Assembly (NCBI RefSeq): GCF_003334405.1
Contig: NZ_QOWM01000001.1
Reading direction: 5' to 3' (one strand)
Origin: Escherichia coli
GTDB lineage: Bacteria; Pseudomonadota; Gammaproteobacteria; Enterobacterales; Enterobacteriaceae
DNA length: 64,000 nt
This document shows positions 400 to 55,101 of the stretch, one piece after another; positions within the stretch are counted from its first letter, which is position 1; each line of letters begins with the position of its first letter. The position numbers were made by a program, and so were the translations under genes. Below the pieces are notes generated by a model. It worked only from the letters and a program-made list of their open reading frames with translations, was not told the DNA's origin and did no database searches.

Positions 400-3249
400 T
401 TGAAATACCTTGCTTCTTTTCGTACAACCCTGAAAGCCTCGCGCTACATGTTCAGAGCATTGGCGTTAGTGCTCTGGCTGTTGATTGCTTTTTCATCCGT
501 TTTTTACATCGTTAATGCGTTACATCAGCGAGAATCGGAAATTCGTCAGGAATTTAATCTGAGTTCCGATCAGGCTCAGCGCTTTATTCAACGCACCTCT
601 GATGTGATGAAAGAGCTGAAGTACATCGCCGAAAATCGCTTATCGGCAGAAAACGGTGTGCTTTCCCCGCGTGGACGAGAAACGCAGGCGGATGTGCCTG
701 CGTTTGAACCGCTGTTTGCCGACTCCGATTGTTCCGCAATGAGTAACACCTGGCGAGGTTCTCTGGAGTCATTGGCGTGGTTTATGCGCTACTGGCGCGA
801 TAATTTTTCTGCGGCTTACGATCTAAACCGGGTATTTTTAATCGGCAGCGATAACCTCTGCATGGCCAATTTCGGTCTGCGTGATATGCCAGTGGAACGC
901 GATACCGCGTTGAAAGCTTTGCATGAACGCATCAATAAATATCGAAATGCACCACAAGATGATAGCGGCAGTAACCTCTACTGGATCAGCGAAGGTCCGC
1001 GCCCTGGCGTCGGGTATTTTTACGCGTTGACGCCAGTTTATCTGGCGAACCGGTTGCAGGCGCTTTTGGGTGTCGAGCAGACCATCCGGATGGAGAACTT
1101 TTTCTTACCGGGTACGTTGCCGATGGGGGTTACCATTCTTGATGAAAATGGTCATACCCTGATTTCGCTTACCGGACCAGAAAGTAAAATTAAGGGCGAT
1201 CCTCGCTGGATGCAGGAACGCTCCTGGTTTGGCTATACGGAAGGGTTCCGGGAGCTGGTGCTGAAGAAAAATCTGCCACCCTCATCGCTAAGCATCGTGT
1301 ATTCGGTGCCGGTTGATAAGGTGCTGGAACGCATTCGCATGTTGATCCTTAACGCAATTTTGCTGAATGTGCTTGCCGGAGCTGCATTGTTTACTCTCGC
1401 ACGGATGTACGAGCGACGTATTTTCATTCCGGCGGAAAGCGACGCCCTGCGACTGGAAGAACATGAGCAGTTCAATCGCAAGATTGTCGCCTCCGCGCCA
1501 GTGGGTATCTGCATTTTGCGTACCGCTGATGGCGTCAATATTTTAAGTAACGAACTGGCGCATACCTATCTCAATATGCTTACGCATGAGGACCGCCAAC
1601 GACTGACGCAAATTATCTGTGGGCAGCAGGTCAATTTTGTTGATGTCCTGACCAGCAACAATACCAATCTGCAAATCAGCTTCGTCCATTCGCGCTATCG
1701 TAATGAAAACGTGGCCATTTGTGTGCTGGTGGATGTTTCTTCGCGCGTGAAGATGGAAGAGTCGTTGCAGGAGATGGCACAAGCAGCGGAACAGGCGAGC
1801 CAGTCAAAATCGATGTTCCTTGCCACCGTCAGTCATGAGCTGCGAACGCCGCTGTATGGCATTATCGGTAACCTGGATCTGTTGCAAACCAAAGAGTTAC
1901 CGAAAGGCGTCGATCGGCTGGTGACGGCAATGAACAACTCTTCCAGCCTGTTGTTGAAAATTATCAGCGATATTCTCGATTTCTCGAAGATTGAATCGGA
2001 ACAGTTGAAGATCGAACCGCGTGAGTTTTCACCGCGTGAAGTGATGAACCACATCACCGCCAACTATTTACCGCTGGTGGTACGCAAGCAGTTAGGCTTG
2101 TACTGCTTTATTGAACCGGATGTGCCAGTGGCCTTAAATGGCGACCCGATGCGTTTACAGCAGGTCATCTCCAACCTGTTGAGTAACGCCATAAAATTCA
2201 CCGATACCGGCTGTATAGTTTTGCATGTTCGCGCGGATGGCGATTATCTCTCTATCCGTGTTCGCGATACCGGCGTGGGGATACCGGCGAAAGAAGTGGT
2301 GCGCTTGTTTGATCCCTTCTTCCAGGTCGGAACGGGCGTACAGCGTAATTTCCAGGGGACCGGTCTGGGTCTGGCGATTTGTGAAAAACTGATCAGCATG
2401 ATGGACGGCGATATCTCGGTAGATTCAGAACCGGGAATGGGCAGCCAGTTTACCGTGCGTATTCCGTTGTACGGCGCTCAGTACCCGCAGAAAAAAGGCG
2501 TGGAAGGGTTGAGTGGTAAACGCTGCTGGCTGGCGGTCCGCAATGCGTCGCTCTGTCAGTTCCTGGAAACCAGTTTGCAGCGCAGCGGCATCGTCGTTAC
2601 AACATACGAAGGGCAGGAACCGACTCCCGAAGATGTGTTGATCACTGACGAGGTAGTGAGTAAAAAATGGCAGGGCAGAGCGGTAGTGACCTTCTGTCGT
2701 CGCCATATTGGTATTCCGCTGGAGAAAGCGCCAGGGGAGTGGGTACACAGTGTGGCTGCTCCGCATGAGCTACCGGCATTGTTGGCGCGTATTTATTTGA
2801 TCGAGATGGAGAGCGACGATCCTGCTAACGCTCTGCCGTCAACGGACAAAGCGGTCAGCGATAATGACGATATGATGATTCTGGTCGTGGATGATCATCC
2901 GATTAACCGGCGTTTGCTGGCAGATCAGTTGGGATCGTTGGGCTATCAATGTAAAACCGCGAATGATGGCGTCGATGCGCTTAATGTACTTAGCAAGAAT
3001 CATATTGATATCGTGCTTAGCGACGTCAACATGCCAAATATGGATGGTTACCGCTTGACGCAACGCATTCGTCAGTTGGGACTGACGTTGCCGGTAATCG
3101 GAGTAACTGCTAATGCGTTGGCTGAAGAGAAGCAGCGGTGTCTGGAGTCCGGTATGGACAGCTGCCTGTCGAAGCCGGTAACGCTGGATGTGATAAAACA
3201 GACGCTGACGTTATATGCCGAGAGGGTCAGGAAATCGCGGGATTCGTAG
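400..3249 (+). CDS. rcsC: Hybrid sensor histidine kinase RcsC (Rcs phosphorelay)
   Basis: ORF 949 aa, N-terminus MKYLASFRTT, H-box SHELRTPL, C-terminal receiver domain (VVDDHPINRRLL...DVNMPNMDG). Length matches K-12 RcsC. First codon is TTG (400-402) with GGCGGAG Shine-Dalgarno-like sequence upstream; no in-frame ATG upstream. Confidence 0.96.
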   Translation: MKYLASFRTTLKASRYMFRALALVLWLLIAFSSVFYIVNALHQRESEIRQEFNLSSDQAQRFIQRTSDVMKELKYIAENRLSAENGVLSPRGRETQADVPAFEPLFADSDCSAMSNTWRGSLESLAWFMRYWRDNFSAAYDLNRVFLIGSDNLCMANFGLRDMPVERDTALKALHERINKYRNAPQDDSGSNLYWISEGPRPGVGYFYALTPVYLANRLQALLGVEQTIRMENFFLPGTLPMGVTILDENGHTLISLTGPESKIKGDPRWMQERSWFGYTEGFRELVLKKNLPPSSLSIVYSVPVDKVLERIRMLILNAILLNVLAGAALFTLARMYERRIFIPAESDALRLEEHEQFNRKIVASAPVGICILRTADGVNILSNELAHTYLNMLTHEDRQRLTQIICGQQVNFVDVLTSNNTNLQISFVHSRYRNENVAICVLVDVSSRVKMEESLQEMAQAAEQASQSKSMFLATVSHELRTPLYGIIGNLDLLQTKELPKGVDRLVTAMNNSSSLLLKIISDILDFSKIESEQLKIEPREFSPREVMNHITANYLPLVVRKQLGLYCFIEPDVPVALNGDPMRLQQVISNLLSNAIKFTDTGCIVLHVRADGDYLSIRVRDTGVGIPAKEVVRLFDPFFQVGTGVQRNFQGTGLGLAICEKLISMMDGDISVDSEPGMGSQFTVRIPLYGAQYPQKKGVEGLSGKRCWLAVRNASLCQFLETSLQRSGIVVTTYEGQEPTPEDVLITDEVVSKKWQGRAVVTFCRRHIGIPLEKAPGEWVHSVAAPHELPALLARIYLIEMESDDPANALPSTDKAVSDNDDMMILVVDDHPINRRLLADQLGSLGYQCKTANDGVDALNVLSKNHIDIVLSDVNMPNMDGYRLTQRIRQLGLTLPVIGVTANALAEEKQRCLESGMDSCLSKPVTLDVIKQTLTLYAERVRKSRDS

Positions 3250-3441
<192 letters not shown>

Positions 3442-36116: not shown

Positions 36117-36148
36117 ACAAAAAACCCCGCCGGAGCGGGGTTTTTTAC
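36117..36148. terminator. Bidirectional intrinsic terminator between convergent yejK and rplY
   Basis: AAAAAA-CCCCGC-CGGA-GCGGGG-TTTTTT. Confidence 0.8.
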
Positions 36149-39203: not shown

Positions 39204-40394
39204 GTGACCACCCGACAGCATTCGTCGTTTGCTATTGTTTTTATCCTTGGCCTGCTGGCCATGTTGATGCCGCTGTCGATTGATATGTATCTGCCCGCGC
39301 TACCGGTAATTTCAGCGCAGTTTGGCGTACCGGCGGGCAGTACGCAGATGACCCTCAGTACTTATATTCTGGGCTTTGCGTTGGGGCAGTTAATCTACGG
39401 GCCGATGGCAGACAGCTTCGGGCGTAAGCCGGTGGTGCTCGGCGGTACGCTGGTGTTTGCCGCCGCCGCGGTGGCGTGTGCGTTGGCAAACACCATCGAT
39501 CAGCTGATTGTGATGCGTTTCTTCCACGGGCTGGCTGCGGCTGCGGCCAGCGTGGTCATTAACGCCCTGATGCGCGATATTTACCCGAAAGAAGAGTTCT
39601 CGCGGATGATGTCGTTTGTCATGCTGGTGACAACCATTGCACCGCTGATGGCACCGATAGTTGGCGGCTGGGTGCTGGTGTGGCTGAGCTGGCATTACAT
39701 CTTCTGGATCCTGGCATTAGCGGCGATTCTGGCTTCGGCAATGATTTTCTTCCTGATTAAAGAAACCTTACCACCGGAGCGTCGTCAGCCATTTCACATT
39801 CGTACCACTATTGGTAACTTTGCGGCGCTGTTCCGCCATAAACGTGTCCTGAGCTACATGCTTGCCAGTGGTTTCAGCTTTGCCGGGATGTTCTCATTCT
39901 TAAGCGCCGGACCGTTTGTTTATATTGAAATTAACCACGTCGCGCCGGAAAACTTTGGTTATTACTTTGCGCTAAACATTGTTTTTCTGTTCGTGATGAC
40001 CATCTTTAACAGCCGCTTCGTCCGCCGCATTGGCGCGTTAAATATGTTCCGCTCGGGGTTGTGGATACAATTTATTATGGCAGCGTGGATGGTCATCAGT
40101 GCGCTGCTGGGGCTGGGATTTTGGTCGCTGGTGGTTGGCGTTGCGGCGTTTGTGGGCTGCGTGTCGATGGTGTCATCCAATGCGATGGCGGTCATTCTTG
40201 ATGAGTTTCCCCATATGGCGGGAACGGCATCTTCGCTGGCAGGAACCTTCCGTTTTGGCATAGGGGCAATTGTTGGCGCATTGCTTTCTCTTGCGACCTT
40301 TAACTCTGCATGGCCGATGATTTGGTCAATTGCATTCTGCGCAACCAGCTCCATTCTCTTCTGTCTGTACGCCAGTCGGCCGAAAAAACGGTGA
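39204..40394 (+). CDS. bcr: MFS efflux transporter Bcr (bicyclomycin/multidrug resistance)
   Basis: ORF 396 aa, GTG start, 12-TM MFS topology; matches Bcr. Confidence 0.94.
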
Positions 40395-40726
40395 TCTATT
40401 GCACAACGAGGAAGCTAAAAGGCTTCCTTTGTTGATGCATGTCAACCACAAATCTATCATTCCCCCGATATATGTTTATTTTATGTAAAATCAATTTATG
40501 TAAAAAGTCACATCATTGTAGTTAAAAAGATTGAGTTAGATCGCAGAAACGGGTACATATAGCCCCGCAAACGTGACCACGCCCGCAGATATTACTTAAA
40601 TCAGAGCCATAGAGGCCACGCAGGCGAGGCATCAATCTTTACGATCTGTATAAAGACGGATTGTTGATGATGTGTTAAAATTGATGTAAACAAATTGTGA
40701 AGTGAATGTGCTTCCGGGGAAAATAA

Positions 40727-41071
40727 GTGACTTCATTACAACTCTCAATCGTCCATCGACTGCCGCAGAACTATCGCTGGTCTGCTGGTTTCGCAGGTTC
40801 GAAGGTTGAACCGATTCCGCAAAATGGACCGTGCGGTGACAACAGCCTGGTGGCGCTTAAATTGCTTAGCCCGGATGGTGATAATGCATGGTCGGTGATG
40901 TATAAACTAAGCCAGGCGTTAAGCGACATCGAAGTTCCATGTTCGGTGCTGGAGTGTGAAGGTGAGCCGTGCCTGTTTGTAAATCGCCAGGACGAGTTTG
41001 CTGCAACATGCCGATTGAAAAATTTTGGTGTGGCAATTGCCGAACCCTTTTCAAACTACAATCCTTTTTAA
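40727..41071 (+). CDS. yejG: Uncharacterised protein YejG
   Basis: ORF 114 aa, GTG start ([18 protein letters not shown]...); function unknown to my knowledge. Confidence 0.88.
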
Positions 41072-41074
41072 GCG

Positions 41075-42664
41075 TCAGCTCAACGCCAGTAGCTGACGCG
41101 TATACTCCTGCTGCGGTGTGGCAAACACGCGCGCGCACGGTCCTTGTTCCACTACTTCCCCTTGTCGCAGTATGATAACCTGATGACATAACGCGCGGAC
41201 AACGTGCAAATCGTGGCTGATAAACAAATAGGCCAGTTGATGCTTTTGTTGCAATGATTTCAATAGCGTCAATATTTGCGCCTGTACCGTTTTGTCGAGT
41301 GATGATGTCGGTTCATCAAGTATGATCAGCGAGGGCTTAAGAATTAATGCCCTGGCAATCGCAATACGTTGTCGCTGACCACCAGAGAACTCCGCCGGAT
41401 AACGGTGGCGTGTTTCAGGATCTAATCCCACTTCATGCATCACGGCTATCACTTGTTGTTCGCGTTGTGCGGCAGAAAGCGTCGGCTGGTGAACCCGTAA
41501 GCCTTCCTCAATAATCTGCAAAACGTTGAGTCGTGGGTTGAGCGAGGAGTTTGGATCCTGAAATACCACCTGAATGCGATGACGAATAGGTAACAGCTGG
41601 CGGCGATTTAAATTTTGCAGTGGCTGACCGTCAAAGATGATGCTGCCCTGAGAATTAATCAGTCGCAGCAGCGCCAGTCCCGTCGTACTTTTCCCGGAAC
41701 CGGACTCGCCCACTAAACCCAGTGTTTCACCCGCTCGTAGCGTAAAACTGATGTTTTTCACCACCACATTATGATCCACAATGCGCTTCAAAATCCCTTT
41801 GCGAATGGGGAAGGCAACCTGAAGCTGTTCAACATCCAGCAACGTTGAGGCAGGTTCTGGCAACGGCACTGGATCGCCTGACGGTTCACTGTTGAGTAGC
41901 TTTTGTGTGTAAGGATGAGTGGGTGATGCAAATAGCGTAGCGGCGTAATTTTGCTCGACACAGCGACCGTTTTGCATTACCGCCACGCGGTGGGCCAGTT
42001 TTCTGACAATGCTGAGGTTATGAGTAATAAACAGCATGCCCATATTCAGCTCGCCTTGCAGTTCGCGCAACAGCTGTAAAATCTGCGCCTGGACAGAGAC
42101 GTCCAGTGCGGTGGTCGGTTCATCGGCAATTAATAATTCCGGTCGCGTTAACAGCGCCATCGCAATCATCACCCGCTGCCGTTCGCCGCCGGAGAGCTGA
42201 TGCGGATAATCTGTCAGCCGTTTTGCCGCCTGGCGGATACCAACGCGATCAAGGCAGTTAAGAATTTCGCCACGAGCCGCTTCCCGACGCATCCCGCGGT
42301 GGAGTGAAAGCACTTCATAAAGCTGTTTTTCCAGGGTATGCAATGGATTTAACGACACCATCGGTTCCTGAAAAATCATGGCGATCTTATTACCGCGTAC
42401 ACCGCGCAACGTTTGATCGCTGGCGTGAAGCAGCGATTCGCCATGAAAACGAATATCGCCGGAGAGATATTCAACCGGCGGGGAAGGGAGCAGGCGTAAA
42501 ATTGACAGCGCGGTAACGCTTTTGCCTGAACCTGACTCACCCACCAGCGCCAGCGTTTCGCCAGCCTCAATCTGTAGTGAAACATCATTGACTACTGTAC
42601 GTACGGTTTGCTGATGGCGAAAACCCACCGACAAATTTTCAATCGCTAACAGAGTTTGCGTCAT
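41075..42664 (-). CDS. yejF: ABC transporter ATPase YejF (tandem ATP-binding domains; peptide/microcin C uptake)
   Basis: ORF track 41075..42712 trimmed to MTQTLLAIENLSVGF... (529 aa); two Walker A motifs GESGSGKS. Confidence 0.93.
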   Translation of the reverse strand: MTQTLLAIENLSVGFRHQQTVRTVVNDVSLQIEAGETLALVGESGSGKSVTALSILRLLPSPPVEYLSGDIRFHGESLLHASDQTLRGVRGNKIAMIFQEPMVSLNPLHTLEKQLYEVLSLHRGMRREAARGEILNCLDRVGIRQAAKRLTDYPHQLSGGERQRVMIAMALLTRPELLIADEPTTALDVSVQAQILQLLRELQGELNMGMLFITHNLSIVRKLAHRVAVMQNGRCVEQNYAATLFASPTHPYTQKLLNSEPSGDPVPLPEPASTLLDVEQLQVAFPIRKGILKRIVDHNVVVKNISFTLRAGETLGLVGESGSGKSTTGLALLRLINSQGSIIFDGQPLQNLNRRQLLPIRHRIQVVFQDPNSSLNPRLNVLQIIEEGLRVHQPTLSAAQREQQVIAVMHEVGLDPETRHRYPAEFSGGQRQRIAIARALILKPSLIILDEPTSSLDKTVQAQILTLLKSLQQKHQLAYLFISHDLHVVRALCHQVIILRQGEVVEQGPCARVFATPQQEYTRQLLALS

Positions 42665-42665
42665 G

Positions 42666-43691
42666 CTACACCGCCTTATTAGGATCAAATGCGTCGCGGA
42701 CGGCTTCACCAATAAAGATCAGCAAAGACAATAATATCGCCACCGACAAGAAGGCGGTGATCCCAAGCCACGGGGCCTGAAGGTTATTTTTCCCTTGTAA
42801 CAGCAGTTCACCGAGTGACGGTGAACCGAGCGGTAGACCGAAGCCGAGGAAATCGAGCGAGGTCAGGGTGGTTATCGAACTACATAAAATAAACGGTAAA
42901 AAGGTGAGGGTCGCGACCATGGCATTAGGCAACATATGACGCAGGATGATACTGCGATCGCTGACGCCAAGCGCCTGTGCCGCACGAATGTAGTCGAAAT
43001 TACGAGTACGTAAAAACTCCGCCCGCACCACGCCGACCAGACTCATCCAGCCAAACAAGACAGTAATTGCCAGCAGCCACCAGAAGTTAGGCTGTACGAC
43101 GCTGGAAAGTAAAATAATCAAAAACAGCGTCGGCATCCCCGACCATACTTCAATAAAGCGTTGTCCCCAGAGATCGACTTTACCGCCGTAATAGCCTTGT
43201 AGCGCCCCCGCCAGCACGCCCATCACGCTGGAACAGAGAGTCAGCATCAGGCCAAACAGAACCGAGATCCGCGTGCCATAGAGAATGCGTGCCAGCACAT
43301 CGCCGCCGTTGGCATCCGTTCCCAGCCAGTTTTGCCGGGAGGGTGGAGAAGGGAAGGGCTTATCGGTAGCAAAGTTGATACTGGTAGCACCAAAGCGAAT
43401 CGGTGCCCACAGTACCCAGCCGTTATTTTCCAGCCGTTGTTTCAGCCACGGGTCCTGATAATCAGCCTGACTTGCCAGCGGGCCGCCAAAATCGCTTTCG
43501 CTGTAGTTTTTCAATAACGGGAAATACCAACTGCCGTCATAACGCACCAGCAACGGTTTATCGTTGGCGATAAGTTCAGAACACAAACTCAAACCAAACA
43601 AGACGAGGAAAATCCATAACGACCAGTAGCCGCGACGGTTATGACGAAAACGCGCCCAACGGGCCTGATTGACGGGGCTGAGTCGCGACAT
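42666..43691 (-). CDS. yejE: ABC transporter permease YejE
   Basis: ORF 341 aa, oligopeptide-permease-type membrane subunit. Confidence 0.93.
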   Translation of the reverse strand: MSRLSPVNQARWARFRHNRRGYWSLWIFLVLFGLSLCSELIANDKPLLVRYDGSWYFPLLKNYSESDFGGPLASQADYQDPWLKQRLENNGWVLWAPIRFGATSINFATDKPFPSPPSRQNWLGTDANGGDVLARILYGTRISVLFGLMLTLCSSVMGVLAGALQGYYGGKVDLWGQRFIEVWSGMPTLFLIILLSSVVQPNFWWLLAITVLFGWMSLVGVVRAEFLRTRNFDYIRAAQALGVSDRSIILRHMLPNAMVATLTFLPFILCSSITTLTSLDFLGFGLPLGSPSLGELLLQGKNNLQAPWLGITAFLSVAILLSLLIFIGEAVRDAFDPNKAV

Positions 43692-48345: not shown

Positions 48346-48418
48346 AAAAAAGCACTGCCTAAGCAGTGCTTTCAGTTAACTCGTCAGGATAGCCAAGGGA
48401 TTGCATCCAAACGGTTTA

Positions 48419-53668: not shown

Positions 53669-53923
53669 ATGGAATGCCGTCCGGGTTGCGGGGCGTGTTG
53701 CACTGCCCCTTCAATTTCCAGCCCTATTCCCGGTATGCCAGATGGCAAGCCCGCCAATACGCCCTGCATTCAGCTTGATGAACAGCAACGCTGTAAAATT
53801 TTCACCTCGCCACTGCGACCGAAAGTCTGTGCAGGCTTACAAGCCAGCGCTGAAATGTGCGGTAACTCGCGTCAGCAGGCCATGACCTGGCTTATCGATC
53901 TGGAAATGCTGACCGCGCCTTAA
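53669..53923 (+). CDS. yeiW: Small cysteine-cluster protein YeiW (UPF0153/YkgJ-like; function unknown)
   Basis: [22 protein letters not shown]... 84 aa, motif C-x3-C-x2-CC plus four further Cys; lies within longer ORF 53537..53923, so the true start is uncertain. 3' end overlaps the setB 3' end by 4 nt (convergent). Confidence 0.8.
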
Positions 53924-55101
53924 ACATCTTTAATCCGCAGTAAGCAAAACAGAGTGGCGATAATCATCACCATCGCAAACCAGAACACAGCGTGATAATT
54001 CCAGATCTCGGCGACGATGCCCGCCACTGATCCTGCGATGATCCAGCCCACGCGCGAAGTGTTGGTATAGAGCGTGGTGGCTGAACCCGCCTGACCGGGC
54101 ATCAGATCCTGAAAATAGAGCATCCCGATGCCGCCCAGAATGCCAATAAAAATAGCATTTAGCAGCTGCAAGCCCAACAGAATGACAGGTGAATGCGCCA
54201 TCAGCATTCCTGCGTAAAAACAGACGCCACCCACGGCAGCAACGCGCATTAAGAAACGCTTACCCAGACGTTTGGCGAAATATCCGGCAATCAACATCGT
54301 CGGGATTTCCAGCCCGGCGGCGGTCCCCATCATCACACCGGCCAGTTTCTCGGGAAGATGCAGTTCGTTGATAATAAATAGCGGCATGTTGATGATGTAC
54401 AGGCTGTTCGAGCCCCACATCAATGTACAAATGACAAACAGCAGCAGCGTATCGCGACGGTTACGGCGCGGCGCTTCGATCGTGCCGGTCGCCAGCGGAA
54501 GCTCTTTTTGCATCGACGGTAAAAACAGCCACACCATCACACCGCAAACAATAAACGCTACCGCTGCGCTCAGATACATTACCGTAAAGCTGAAACCCAT
54601 CGCTAAGGCATAAGCCAGCGGTGGGCCAATGACCCATGCCAGTGAAACCTGAGCGCGTAAAAAAGAGCTGAACATCACCGCCTCACGTCCGGTTTTGTCG
54701 GCATGTTCACGGGCAAGGGCAAACATTTGCGGGTTAGCGGTCGAGCCAAAGCTGCTAAGAAAGACGCCAACGAATAGCAAAACAAAGTAGTTGCGATTCC
54801 AGGCAAAAAGGGTGCAGGCCAGCACGCCTAACAGGCAGCAAAAGACAATCAGCGATTTGCGATCGCCGCGCTTATCAGAGCGCCCGGCGAGAAACTGACT
54901 TACCAGAATCCCAATGACAGCGCTGCCGGTAAAGAAGAATCCCACCATCGCCGGACGGGCATGTACTTCATCGGTAAGAAAAATACTGAGTGTCGGGGTT
55001 TGCAGAGCGCCCGCAATACCGGTGAGAAAGGCAACGATTAAAAACGCCGTCGAGGTCAGGTCAAACGATTTCGCGCTGGAGACTGCGGGGGAGTTATGCA
55101 T
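53920..55101 (-). CDS. setB: MFS sugar efflux transporter SetB
   Basis: ORF 393 aa, 12-TM MFS; matches SetB. Confidence 0.93.

Follow-up and report, generated by a model that had tools for sequence, protein, structure and literature searches.

A conserved hairpin at the 3-bp junction between the convergent genes yejG and yejF in Enterobacteriaceae

The convergent genes yejG and yejF of Escherichia coli end 3 bp apart, and a 9-bp hairpin lies across the boundary. We found that this hairpin is a conserved element; an earlier reading made from the sequence alone (the sequence-only reading) had taken it as a curiosity only. The explanation that we favour, with a probability of roughly 0.55 for the whole of it, is that the junction is a convergent excludon boundary with yejG read-through, at which a selected hairpin acts as a protective boundary stem-loop. 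The hairpin is most likely a shared RNA 3′-end protection or collision-positioning element, a function that we infer. The abutting stop codons, the lack of a terminator and the overlapping antisense transcripts at yejG/yejF are already known from the literature. The addition made here, a conserved and covarying junction hairpin with exact 3-bp spacing, is a modest new detail.

The junction and its hairpin

The window is the whole stretch of 64,000 nucleotides of E. coli DNA that was analysed (contig NZ_QOWM01000001.1), and its features are collected in Table 1. The open reading frame list gives yejF as 545 aa from an upstream TTG; with the annotated start the protein has 529 aa. The RefSeq K-12 annotation has the same two coding sequences, yejG and yejF, 3 bp apart, and together with the open reading frames it confirms the positions of the TAA and TGA stop codons and the 3-bp spacing given by the sequence-only reading. 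A 1.3-kb query around the junction found a match in 5426 of 5426 complete E. coli genomes, with RefSeq naming yejG and yejF there. The two genes are tail-to-tail neighbours on opposite strands, which is the gene order of a convergent excludon.

Table 1. Features of the yejG/yejF junction (window positions)
Feature	Position	Strand	Description and basis
yejG CDS	40727-41071	+	114 aa, YejG family; open reading frame list, RefSeq K-12, Pfam PF13989 on homologue
yejG stop TAA	41069-41071	+	end of open reading frame
Spacer GCG	41072-41074	.	3 bp between both stops; outer 3 pairs of the hairpin
Junction hairpin	41072-41099	.	9-bp stem, 10-nt loop 41081-41090; either transcript can form the stem
yejG 3′ UTR	41072-41279	+	208 nt, wholly antisense to last ~69 yejF codons; Term-seq end mapped
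yejF stop TGA	41075-41077	−	tca on plus strand
yejF CDS	41075-42664	−	529 aa, ATPase of YejABEF microcin C/peptide importer; open reading frame list, RefSeq
Stem-loop 6 nt upstream of yejG-strand 3′ end	41236-41273	+	fold ΔG −11.7 kcal/mol, z −2.55
Rho termination region, yejG strand, inside yejF	~41689	+	MG1655 2277275; PMC7815308 Supplementary file 2

The two arms of the hairpin, GCGTCAGCT (41072-41080) and AGCTGACGC (41091-41099), pair perfectly over 9 bp. The first arm runs from the spacer through the yejF stop to the final codon of yejF, AGC (Ser), and the second covers the yejF codons Thr (third base), Arg, Gln and Leu (first and second bases). In the yejF RNA, the Thr-Arg-Gln-Leu codons supply the 5′ arm, and Ser-UGA and the spacer the 3′ arm. 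In the yejG RNA, the stem starts at the first base 3′ of the stop codon. The 9-bp stem was thus present as the sequence-only reading had claimed, and its start was correctly placed, whereas its end had been set one base too far (41100, not 41099). The same reading had put the hairpin inside the 3′ coding sequence of yejF, which is true of part of it; the spacer and the yejF stop are included too.

The stem is G+C-rich, with six G-C pairs among its 9 bp and a ΔG of about −16 kcal/mol on both strands. A 37-nt fold gave −16.6 kcal/mol (z −5.1) for the plus-strand RNA and −16.2 kcal/mol (z −3.8) for the minus-strand RNA, and none of 200 shuffles was equally stable. Across the window there were 32 nested matches (~16 loci) to a perfect stem of 9 bp or more with a 3-12-nt loop, compared to 3.1 ± 2.3 in Markov-1 simulations. 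This approximately 10-fold excess reflects real terminators and similar elements. A stem that lies exactly at the junction and is conserved across the family is not due to chance.

A scan for terminators over 40300-41600 gave no terminator-like site on either strand. Directly 3′ of the junction stem, the plus-strand RNA reads GUAUACUCC and the minus-strand RNA reads UUAAAAAGG, with no U-tract directly after the stem on either strand. Therefore, although the stem is G+C-rich, the hairpin was rejected as an intrinsic (Rho-independent) terminator. The suggestion that the junction leaves no room for terminators holds in both respects, the spacer being 3 bp and the scan having found no intrinsic terminator.

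REP elements at convergent junctions are similar in that they are palindromic and can be carried by both transcripts. The yejG/yejF hairpin differs from them in being single-copy, in having neither an Rfam match nor a REP consensus, and in overlapping coding sequence. A REP or other dispersed repeat was rejected, since the junction occurs at one place per genome in all 5426 E. coli genomes. With a permissive threshold, Rfam gave no match at the junction; the sole match in the region searched (40300-41700) was a spurious eukaryotic lncRNA (E 0.11) in the bcr-yejG spacer.

Conservation of the spacing and the pairing

We compared one genome per species with YejG, giving 80 loci from Enterobacteriaceae and a few relatives; the locus L084, where yejF is fragmented, was left out. 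The exact 3-bp spacing between the stops was found at 68 of the 80 species loci, as well as in the window itself. These loci include Escherichia, Salmonella, Citrobacter, Kluyvera, Klebsiella, Kosakonia, Enterobacter, Leclercia and others. At the other loci, the gap was 0, 1, 2, 5, 9, 22 or 23 bp, or the genes overlapped by 12 or 21 bp.

To analyse pairing, we aligned without gaps the 68 sequences that have the 3-bp spacing, 64 of them distinct. Over the nine pairs of the stem, standard pairs made up 93.1% of cells on the plus strand and 90.5% on the minus strand among the 64 distinct sequences, and sliding the partner by 1-3 columns reduced pairing to 13-57%. RNAalifold predicted the identical helix from the alignment. 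Pair 1, which joins spacer base 1 to the third base of the yejF Thr codon, occurred as GC (34), CG (7) and AU (6). Pair 4, between the first base of the stop triplet and the third position of the Arg codon, occurred as UA (45), UG (11) and CG (7), the CG form being seen only in Enterobacter/Pseudescherichia-like loci. Double changes occurred in 22 cells, whereas the shuffles gave 6.4 ± 2.1 (22 reached in 0 of 500); this control overstates significance, as the aligned sequences are phylogenetically related. The double changes were confined to these two of the nine pairs.

The non-coding bases of the spacer are also conserved. The major-allele frequency was 0.90 at spacer base 2 and 0.93 at base 3, while 56 four-fold sites in the same genes and species averaged 0.59. 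The yejF stop was TGA in 59 of the 68 sequences and the last codon AGC in 56, and the final Ser was always encoded by AGC or AGT and never by TCN. Within E. coli, the 55-nt junction was identical in 5385 of 5426 genomes, and the surrounding 1.3 kb fell below 99% identity in 1932 genomes. Where the spacing has diverged, a stem of different sequence still lies over the yejF stop and the spacer, as at loci with gaps of 5 bp (L051), 9 bp (L083), 22 bp (L080) and 23 bp (L048); the stem of L083, for example, is CCGCCGCU/AGCGGCGG. The retention of the 3-bp spacing, the pairing with compensatory changes and the conserved spacer bases argue together that the junction hairpin is under selection across the Enterobacteriaceae.

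Part of the conservation comes from coding, as one arm of the hairpin is fixed by the conserved YTRQL peptide. The hairpin could accordingly be functionless, a by-product of the YejF C-terminal peptide YTRQLLALS, of codon preferences and of template-switch correction of the quasi-palindrome, with the 3-bp spacing persisting where nearly nothing can be deleted. Quasi-palindromes are known to mutate by template-switch repair, and such a reading would also fit the restriction of double changes to two pairs in related sequences and the weakened stems (ΔG −2.7 to −12 kcal/mol) of three Citrobacter loci (L010, L011, L015). We nevertheless consider it decidedly unlikely. Neither the conservation of the spacer bases beyond that of the four-fold sites nor the preference for TGA and the avoidance of TCN is expected from it, and there has been no insertion at the junction in most genera, though nearby convergent gaps measure 102-210 bp. 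The stems of different sequence at the same position in divergent relatives also speak against it. So does an internal control within yejF, the stem-loop at 41236-41273, where the protein sequence is equally conserved yet the pairs are not kept outside Escherichia. Coding constraint by itself does not explain the conservation of the hairpin. Where a YejF homologue occurs but yejG does not (L085 and the Vibrio locus L086), there was no significant stop-codon hairpin, but two loci are too few to conclude from.

The inverted repeat might instead act as DNA, either as a palindromic protein-binding site or as a cruciform. It is perfect over 9 bp with a 10-bp spacer, and compensatory changes in the outermost pair, being symmetric, would keep a palindrome just as they keep a helix. 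However, several positions of the stem accept G-T ‘pairs’ (32 plus-strand cells), which fits RNA pairing but not symmetry of the DNA. For a regulator, half-sites within coding sequence and 10 variable bases apart would be unusual, and no binding site is reported here in the literature consulted for the locus. A DNA-level site is therefore the least credible of the explanations considered, and we regard it as extremely unlikely. Wobble cells in the stem numbered 32 on the plus strand and 17 on the minus strand, and the junction stems of Mangrovibacter are much stronger on the plus strand (−29 to −31 against −16 to −23 kcal/mol). The asymmetry in pairing (93.1 versus 90.5%) and in wobble leans towards the plus strand as the functional one, but is too weak to conclude from.

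Transcript ends beyond the junction

ExcludonFinder (NAR 2025, PMC12288877 Table 1) lists 165 convergent excludons for E. coli MG1655, with yejF-yejG as one of them; a listed pair has transcript boundaries that overlap in half or more of 58 RNA-seq samples. On the yejG strand, a Term-seq 3′ end of the class ‘antisense yejF’ lies at MG1655 2277685(−) (Adams et al. 2021, PMC7815308 Supplementary file 1). This end is present in all three growth conditions, with one entry each, and in two of its three entries it has scores of 212,916 and 168,450, compared to 10^3 to 10^4 for neighbouring ends (PMC7815308). In the 61-mers of that study the 3′ end is base 51, as checked on the CCA end of proL. The 61-mer of the 2277685 end maps to window positions 41229-41289, which puts the 3′ end at 41279, 208 nt past the yejG stop. 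The stem-loop upstream of this end is followed by AUUUGC; it either terminates transcription weakly or stops an exonuclease. The Rho termination region downstream has a Rho score of 3.76 and a significance of 2e-10 (PMC7815308); its approximate window position was converted from two mapped 61-mers.

With a Term-seq end 208 nt inside yejF and a Rho region further downstream, yejG transcription therefore passes through the junction hairpin, running antisense over at least the last 69 yejF codons. As the dominant yejG-strand end lies 208 nt beyond it, the hairpin does not mark the principal steady-state 3′ end of the yejG RNA in E. coli. The antisense overlap of the yejG and yejABEF transcripts, which had been deduced from the stop codons, is borne out by the published excludon list and by the end at 41279. 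Term-seq at the junction had been proposed as the check, and in the published lists the yejG-strand end falls 208 nt inside yejF and not at the stop codon. On published data, the transcripts of the pair overlap as those of a convergent excludon do.

The pair is like the other convergent excludons of PMC12288877 in its convergent arrangement, its very short intergenic distance and its overlapping transcripts; we place it there by gene order and overlap, whereas the excludon takes its name from mutually exclusive expression and RNase III processing. The conserved hairpin at the yejG/yejF junction is not described in PMC12288877.

The curated Term-seq lists (PMC7815308) contain no 3′ end at the junction hairpin on either strand, and no yejF-strand 3′ end near the junction. 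The SMRT-Cappable-seq supplement has no entry for yejF or yejG. A search for the yejG 3′ UTR as an Hfq-bound sRNA in the RIL-seq-based and CLASH supplements found the yejG 5′ UTR only.

The published end at +208 was itself considered as a conserved element and rejected, the pairs of the stem-loop at 41236-41273 being lost outside Escherichia; together with that stem-loop, it is probably a species-level end. Four-fold sites in yejF codons −1 to −69 were no more conserved than those further upstream, giving no sign of extra constraint along the 208-nt overlap. Within this overlap, the hairpin alone stands out in conservation.

A structure in this register could also act in translation, by sequestering the yejF UGA and last codons, by affecting termination or recycling on yejG, or by hindering Rho loading behind the last ribosome. 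The yejF stop lies within the 3′ arm on the minus strand, the plus-strand hairpin begins right after the yejG stop, and precisely this register is conserved; in addition, the yejG-strand RNA escapes Rho over at least 208 nt that are untranslated. However, ribosomes normally unwind such stems, and ordinary 3′ ends often carry a stem over the stop codon. We consider a role in translation very unlikely.

Candidate roles of the hairpin

Overlapping bidirectional terminators between convergent genes were reportedly found by Ju, Li and Liu in 2019 using SEnd-seq. Such a terminator is a stem-loop between convergent genes that does not look like an intrinsic terminator and is usable from both strands, and the junction hairpin could be one: polymerases from yejG and yejABEF would collide and both transcripts would end on either side. 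The class is described as Rho-independent and needs the stem-loop, which is required to position RNA polymerase collisions between convergent genes (Wang et al., bioRxiv 10.1101/2022.10.23.513370). At yejG/yejF there is a convergent pair without an intrinsic terminator and a stable stem-loop exactly between the genes, and the conservation of both hairpin and spacing would fit an element needed by both.

However, the yejG-strand RNA ends 208 nt past the hairpin in three conditions, with no curated Term-seq end at the hairpin, and the Rho region further along the yejG strand implies that termination there is at least partly Rho-dependent. Moreover, yejABEF seems weakly expressed in the Term-seq conditions, because no yejF-strand end is listed, and collisions would then be rare. 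The yejG/yejF stem also differs from bidirectional terminators in that coding sequence and a stop codon supply part of it. Positioning of polymerase collisions is thus the main rival to the protective boundary that we favour; weakened by the +208 end and the Rho region, it is in our judgement unlikely.

Rho-terminated mRNAs are shielded from PNPase and RNase II by stable stem-loops that lack a U-tract (Dar & Sorek 2018, PMC6061677). The junction hairpin resembles these protective stem-loops in being a stable, U-less stem at the end of a reading frame with Rho acting downstream on the yejG strand. It differs in that no curated Term-seq end lies just after the junction stem, the listed end following the stem-loop at 41236-41273 instead. 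That stem-loop with its end at 41279 fits the protective class better than the junction hairpin does.

The favoured reading, a convergent excludon boundary with a protective stem-loop, is as follows. Neither yejG nor yejF has an intrinsic terminator, and RNA polymerase coming from yejG runs past the stop codon, through the junction hairpin and on antisense into yejF. The dominant yejG-strand 3′ end is left at 41279, 208 nt downstream, behind a modest stem-loop, and transcription beyond this point is stopped by Rho ~620 nt in. The hairpin is a selected RNA structure, formable in the yejG or the yejF transcript. It would stop 3′-to-5′ exonucleases precisely where each reading frame ends. Alternatively, it would halt RNase III-initiated decay of the sense/antisense duplex at the reading-frame ends, and it may also help to position converging polymerases. 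We propose that the register relative to both stops would be conserved because decay is halted right at the ends of the reading frames.

In a more tentative extension, which we think possible but doubtful, the hairpin would be a selected two-way ‘insulator’ at a 3-bp boundary, with decay ended at each stop, and the abundant 208-nt yejG 3′ UTR would serve as an antisense brake on YejABEF; the design might recur, for example at yeiW/setB. Overexpression of YejG, a small protein without an assigned function, reportedly increases resistance to aminoglycosides (cited in PMC12924614). If yejG read-through controls yejF, expression of YejG would be coupled to the peptide/microcin importer.

E. coli has about 165 pairs of this kind, yejG/yejF included, and none of the findings on it changes a major concept. 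The junction does offer a clean and mutable test case, with 28 nt, a free 3-nt spacer and synonymous sites, which could show whether stem-loops at convergent junctions have a role in 3′-end protection, in positioning polymerase collisions, or none at all.

Tight convergent junctions are not rare. Five convergent pairs occur in 41 kb, three with gaps of 210, 102 and 138 bp, the yejG/yejF pair with its 3 bp, and yeiW/setB with a 4-bp overlap. The yeiW/setB pair, 13 kb from yejG/yejF, is in the excludon list too (PMC12288877) and has a modest stem over its junction.

Antisense RNAs at yejG and yejF

Published Term-seq data place a very abundant 3′ end inside yejF on the antisense strand, with a score of ∼2 × 10^5 and in all three growth conditions (PMC7815308), and a stem-loop lies 6 nt before this end. 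The 208-nt 3′ UTR of yejG is thus a stable RNA antisense to yejF. When the RIL-seq and CLASH supplementary tables were searched, the yejG 3′ UTR was not among the Hfq-bound RNAs. Chimeras of the yejG 5′ UTR are contained in the Hfq CLASH and RIL-seq tables; an Hfq-bound small RNA, ‘5′ UTR-yejG’, has been reported from the bcr-yejG spacer (PMC4152368), within which two yejG promoters were mapped experimentally (PMC3798280).

On the yejF-sense strand there is a weaker Term-seq 3′ end (scores 1,086 and 3,147; PMC7815308), 12 nt beyond the bcr terminator hairpin as read from its reverse side. It marks the end of some RNA that is antisense to the yejG promoter region and perhaps to all of yejG. This RNA could arise by read-through from yejABEF or from an antisense promoter; a promoter-like site is found on the minus strand.

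Coordinates of features in the window (perfect stems: selected loci, not exhaustive)
Feature	Position	Strand	Length
bcr-yejG spacer	40395-40726		332 bp
3′ end, yejF-sense	40397	-	
bcr terminator hairpin	40409-40428		
Promoter-like site	40748-40720	-	
Stem-loop and yejF-antisense 3′ end after it	41236-41279	+	
yejF upstream start/yejE end, region	42665-42712		
yeiW	53669-53923	+	
setB	53920-55101	-	
yeiW/setB overlap	53920-53923		4 bp
Perfect stem	680-705		
Perfect stem	3408-3437		
Perfect stem	15176-15204		
Perfect stem	20013-20039		
Perfect stem	32637-32665		
Perfect stem	32808-32836		
Perfect stem	36119-36146		
Perfect stem, at 3′ end downstream of mepS	48349-48372		

Junctions of convergent genes

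In three Mangrovibacter loci (L070, L072 and L076; about 2825-2890 of each) the yejG and yejF stops adjoin with gap 0 or the two genes share 12 nt, and a long G-U-rich stem (ΔG −29 to −31 kcal/mol) lies just within yejF, on the yejG-sense strand only. Among the loci compared, only that of Intestinirhabdus alba (L035, 2843-3100) has yejG without a convergent yejF after it; the G+C-rich sequence following its yejG stop gave no significant fold (z −0.6).

The convergent yeiW and setB, 13 kb from yejG/yejF, overlap such that TTAA is common to both stop codons, and this pair is also included in the published list of excludons (PMC12288877). Folding predicts a modest stem-loop (minus strand, ΔG −27.8 kcal/mol, z −2.25) whose centre falls where the stop codons overlap. 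Stems may therefore be common to junctions at which convergent genes abut.

Perfect stems and packing of the yej operon

At ∼16 loci the window has perfect stems, 9 bp or longer, with short loops, where the expectation was ∼3 nested hits. Several of these loci resemble ordinary terminators; one such terminator-like locus coincides with a published 3′ end downstream of mepS.

The yej operon is tightly packed. From its annotated start yejF encodes 529 aa, and yejE ends 1 nt before this start; the mechanically called ORF begins at an upstream TTG, giving 545 aa and overlapping the end of yejE. The yejB/yejE and yejA/yejB pairs likewise abut or overlap.
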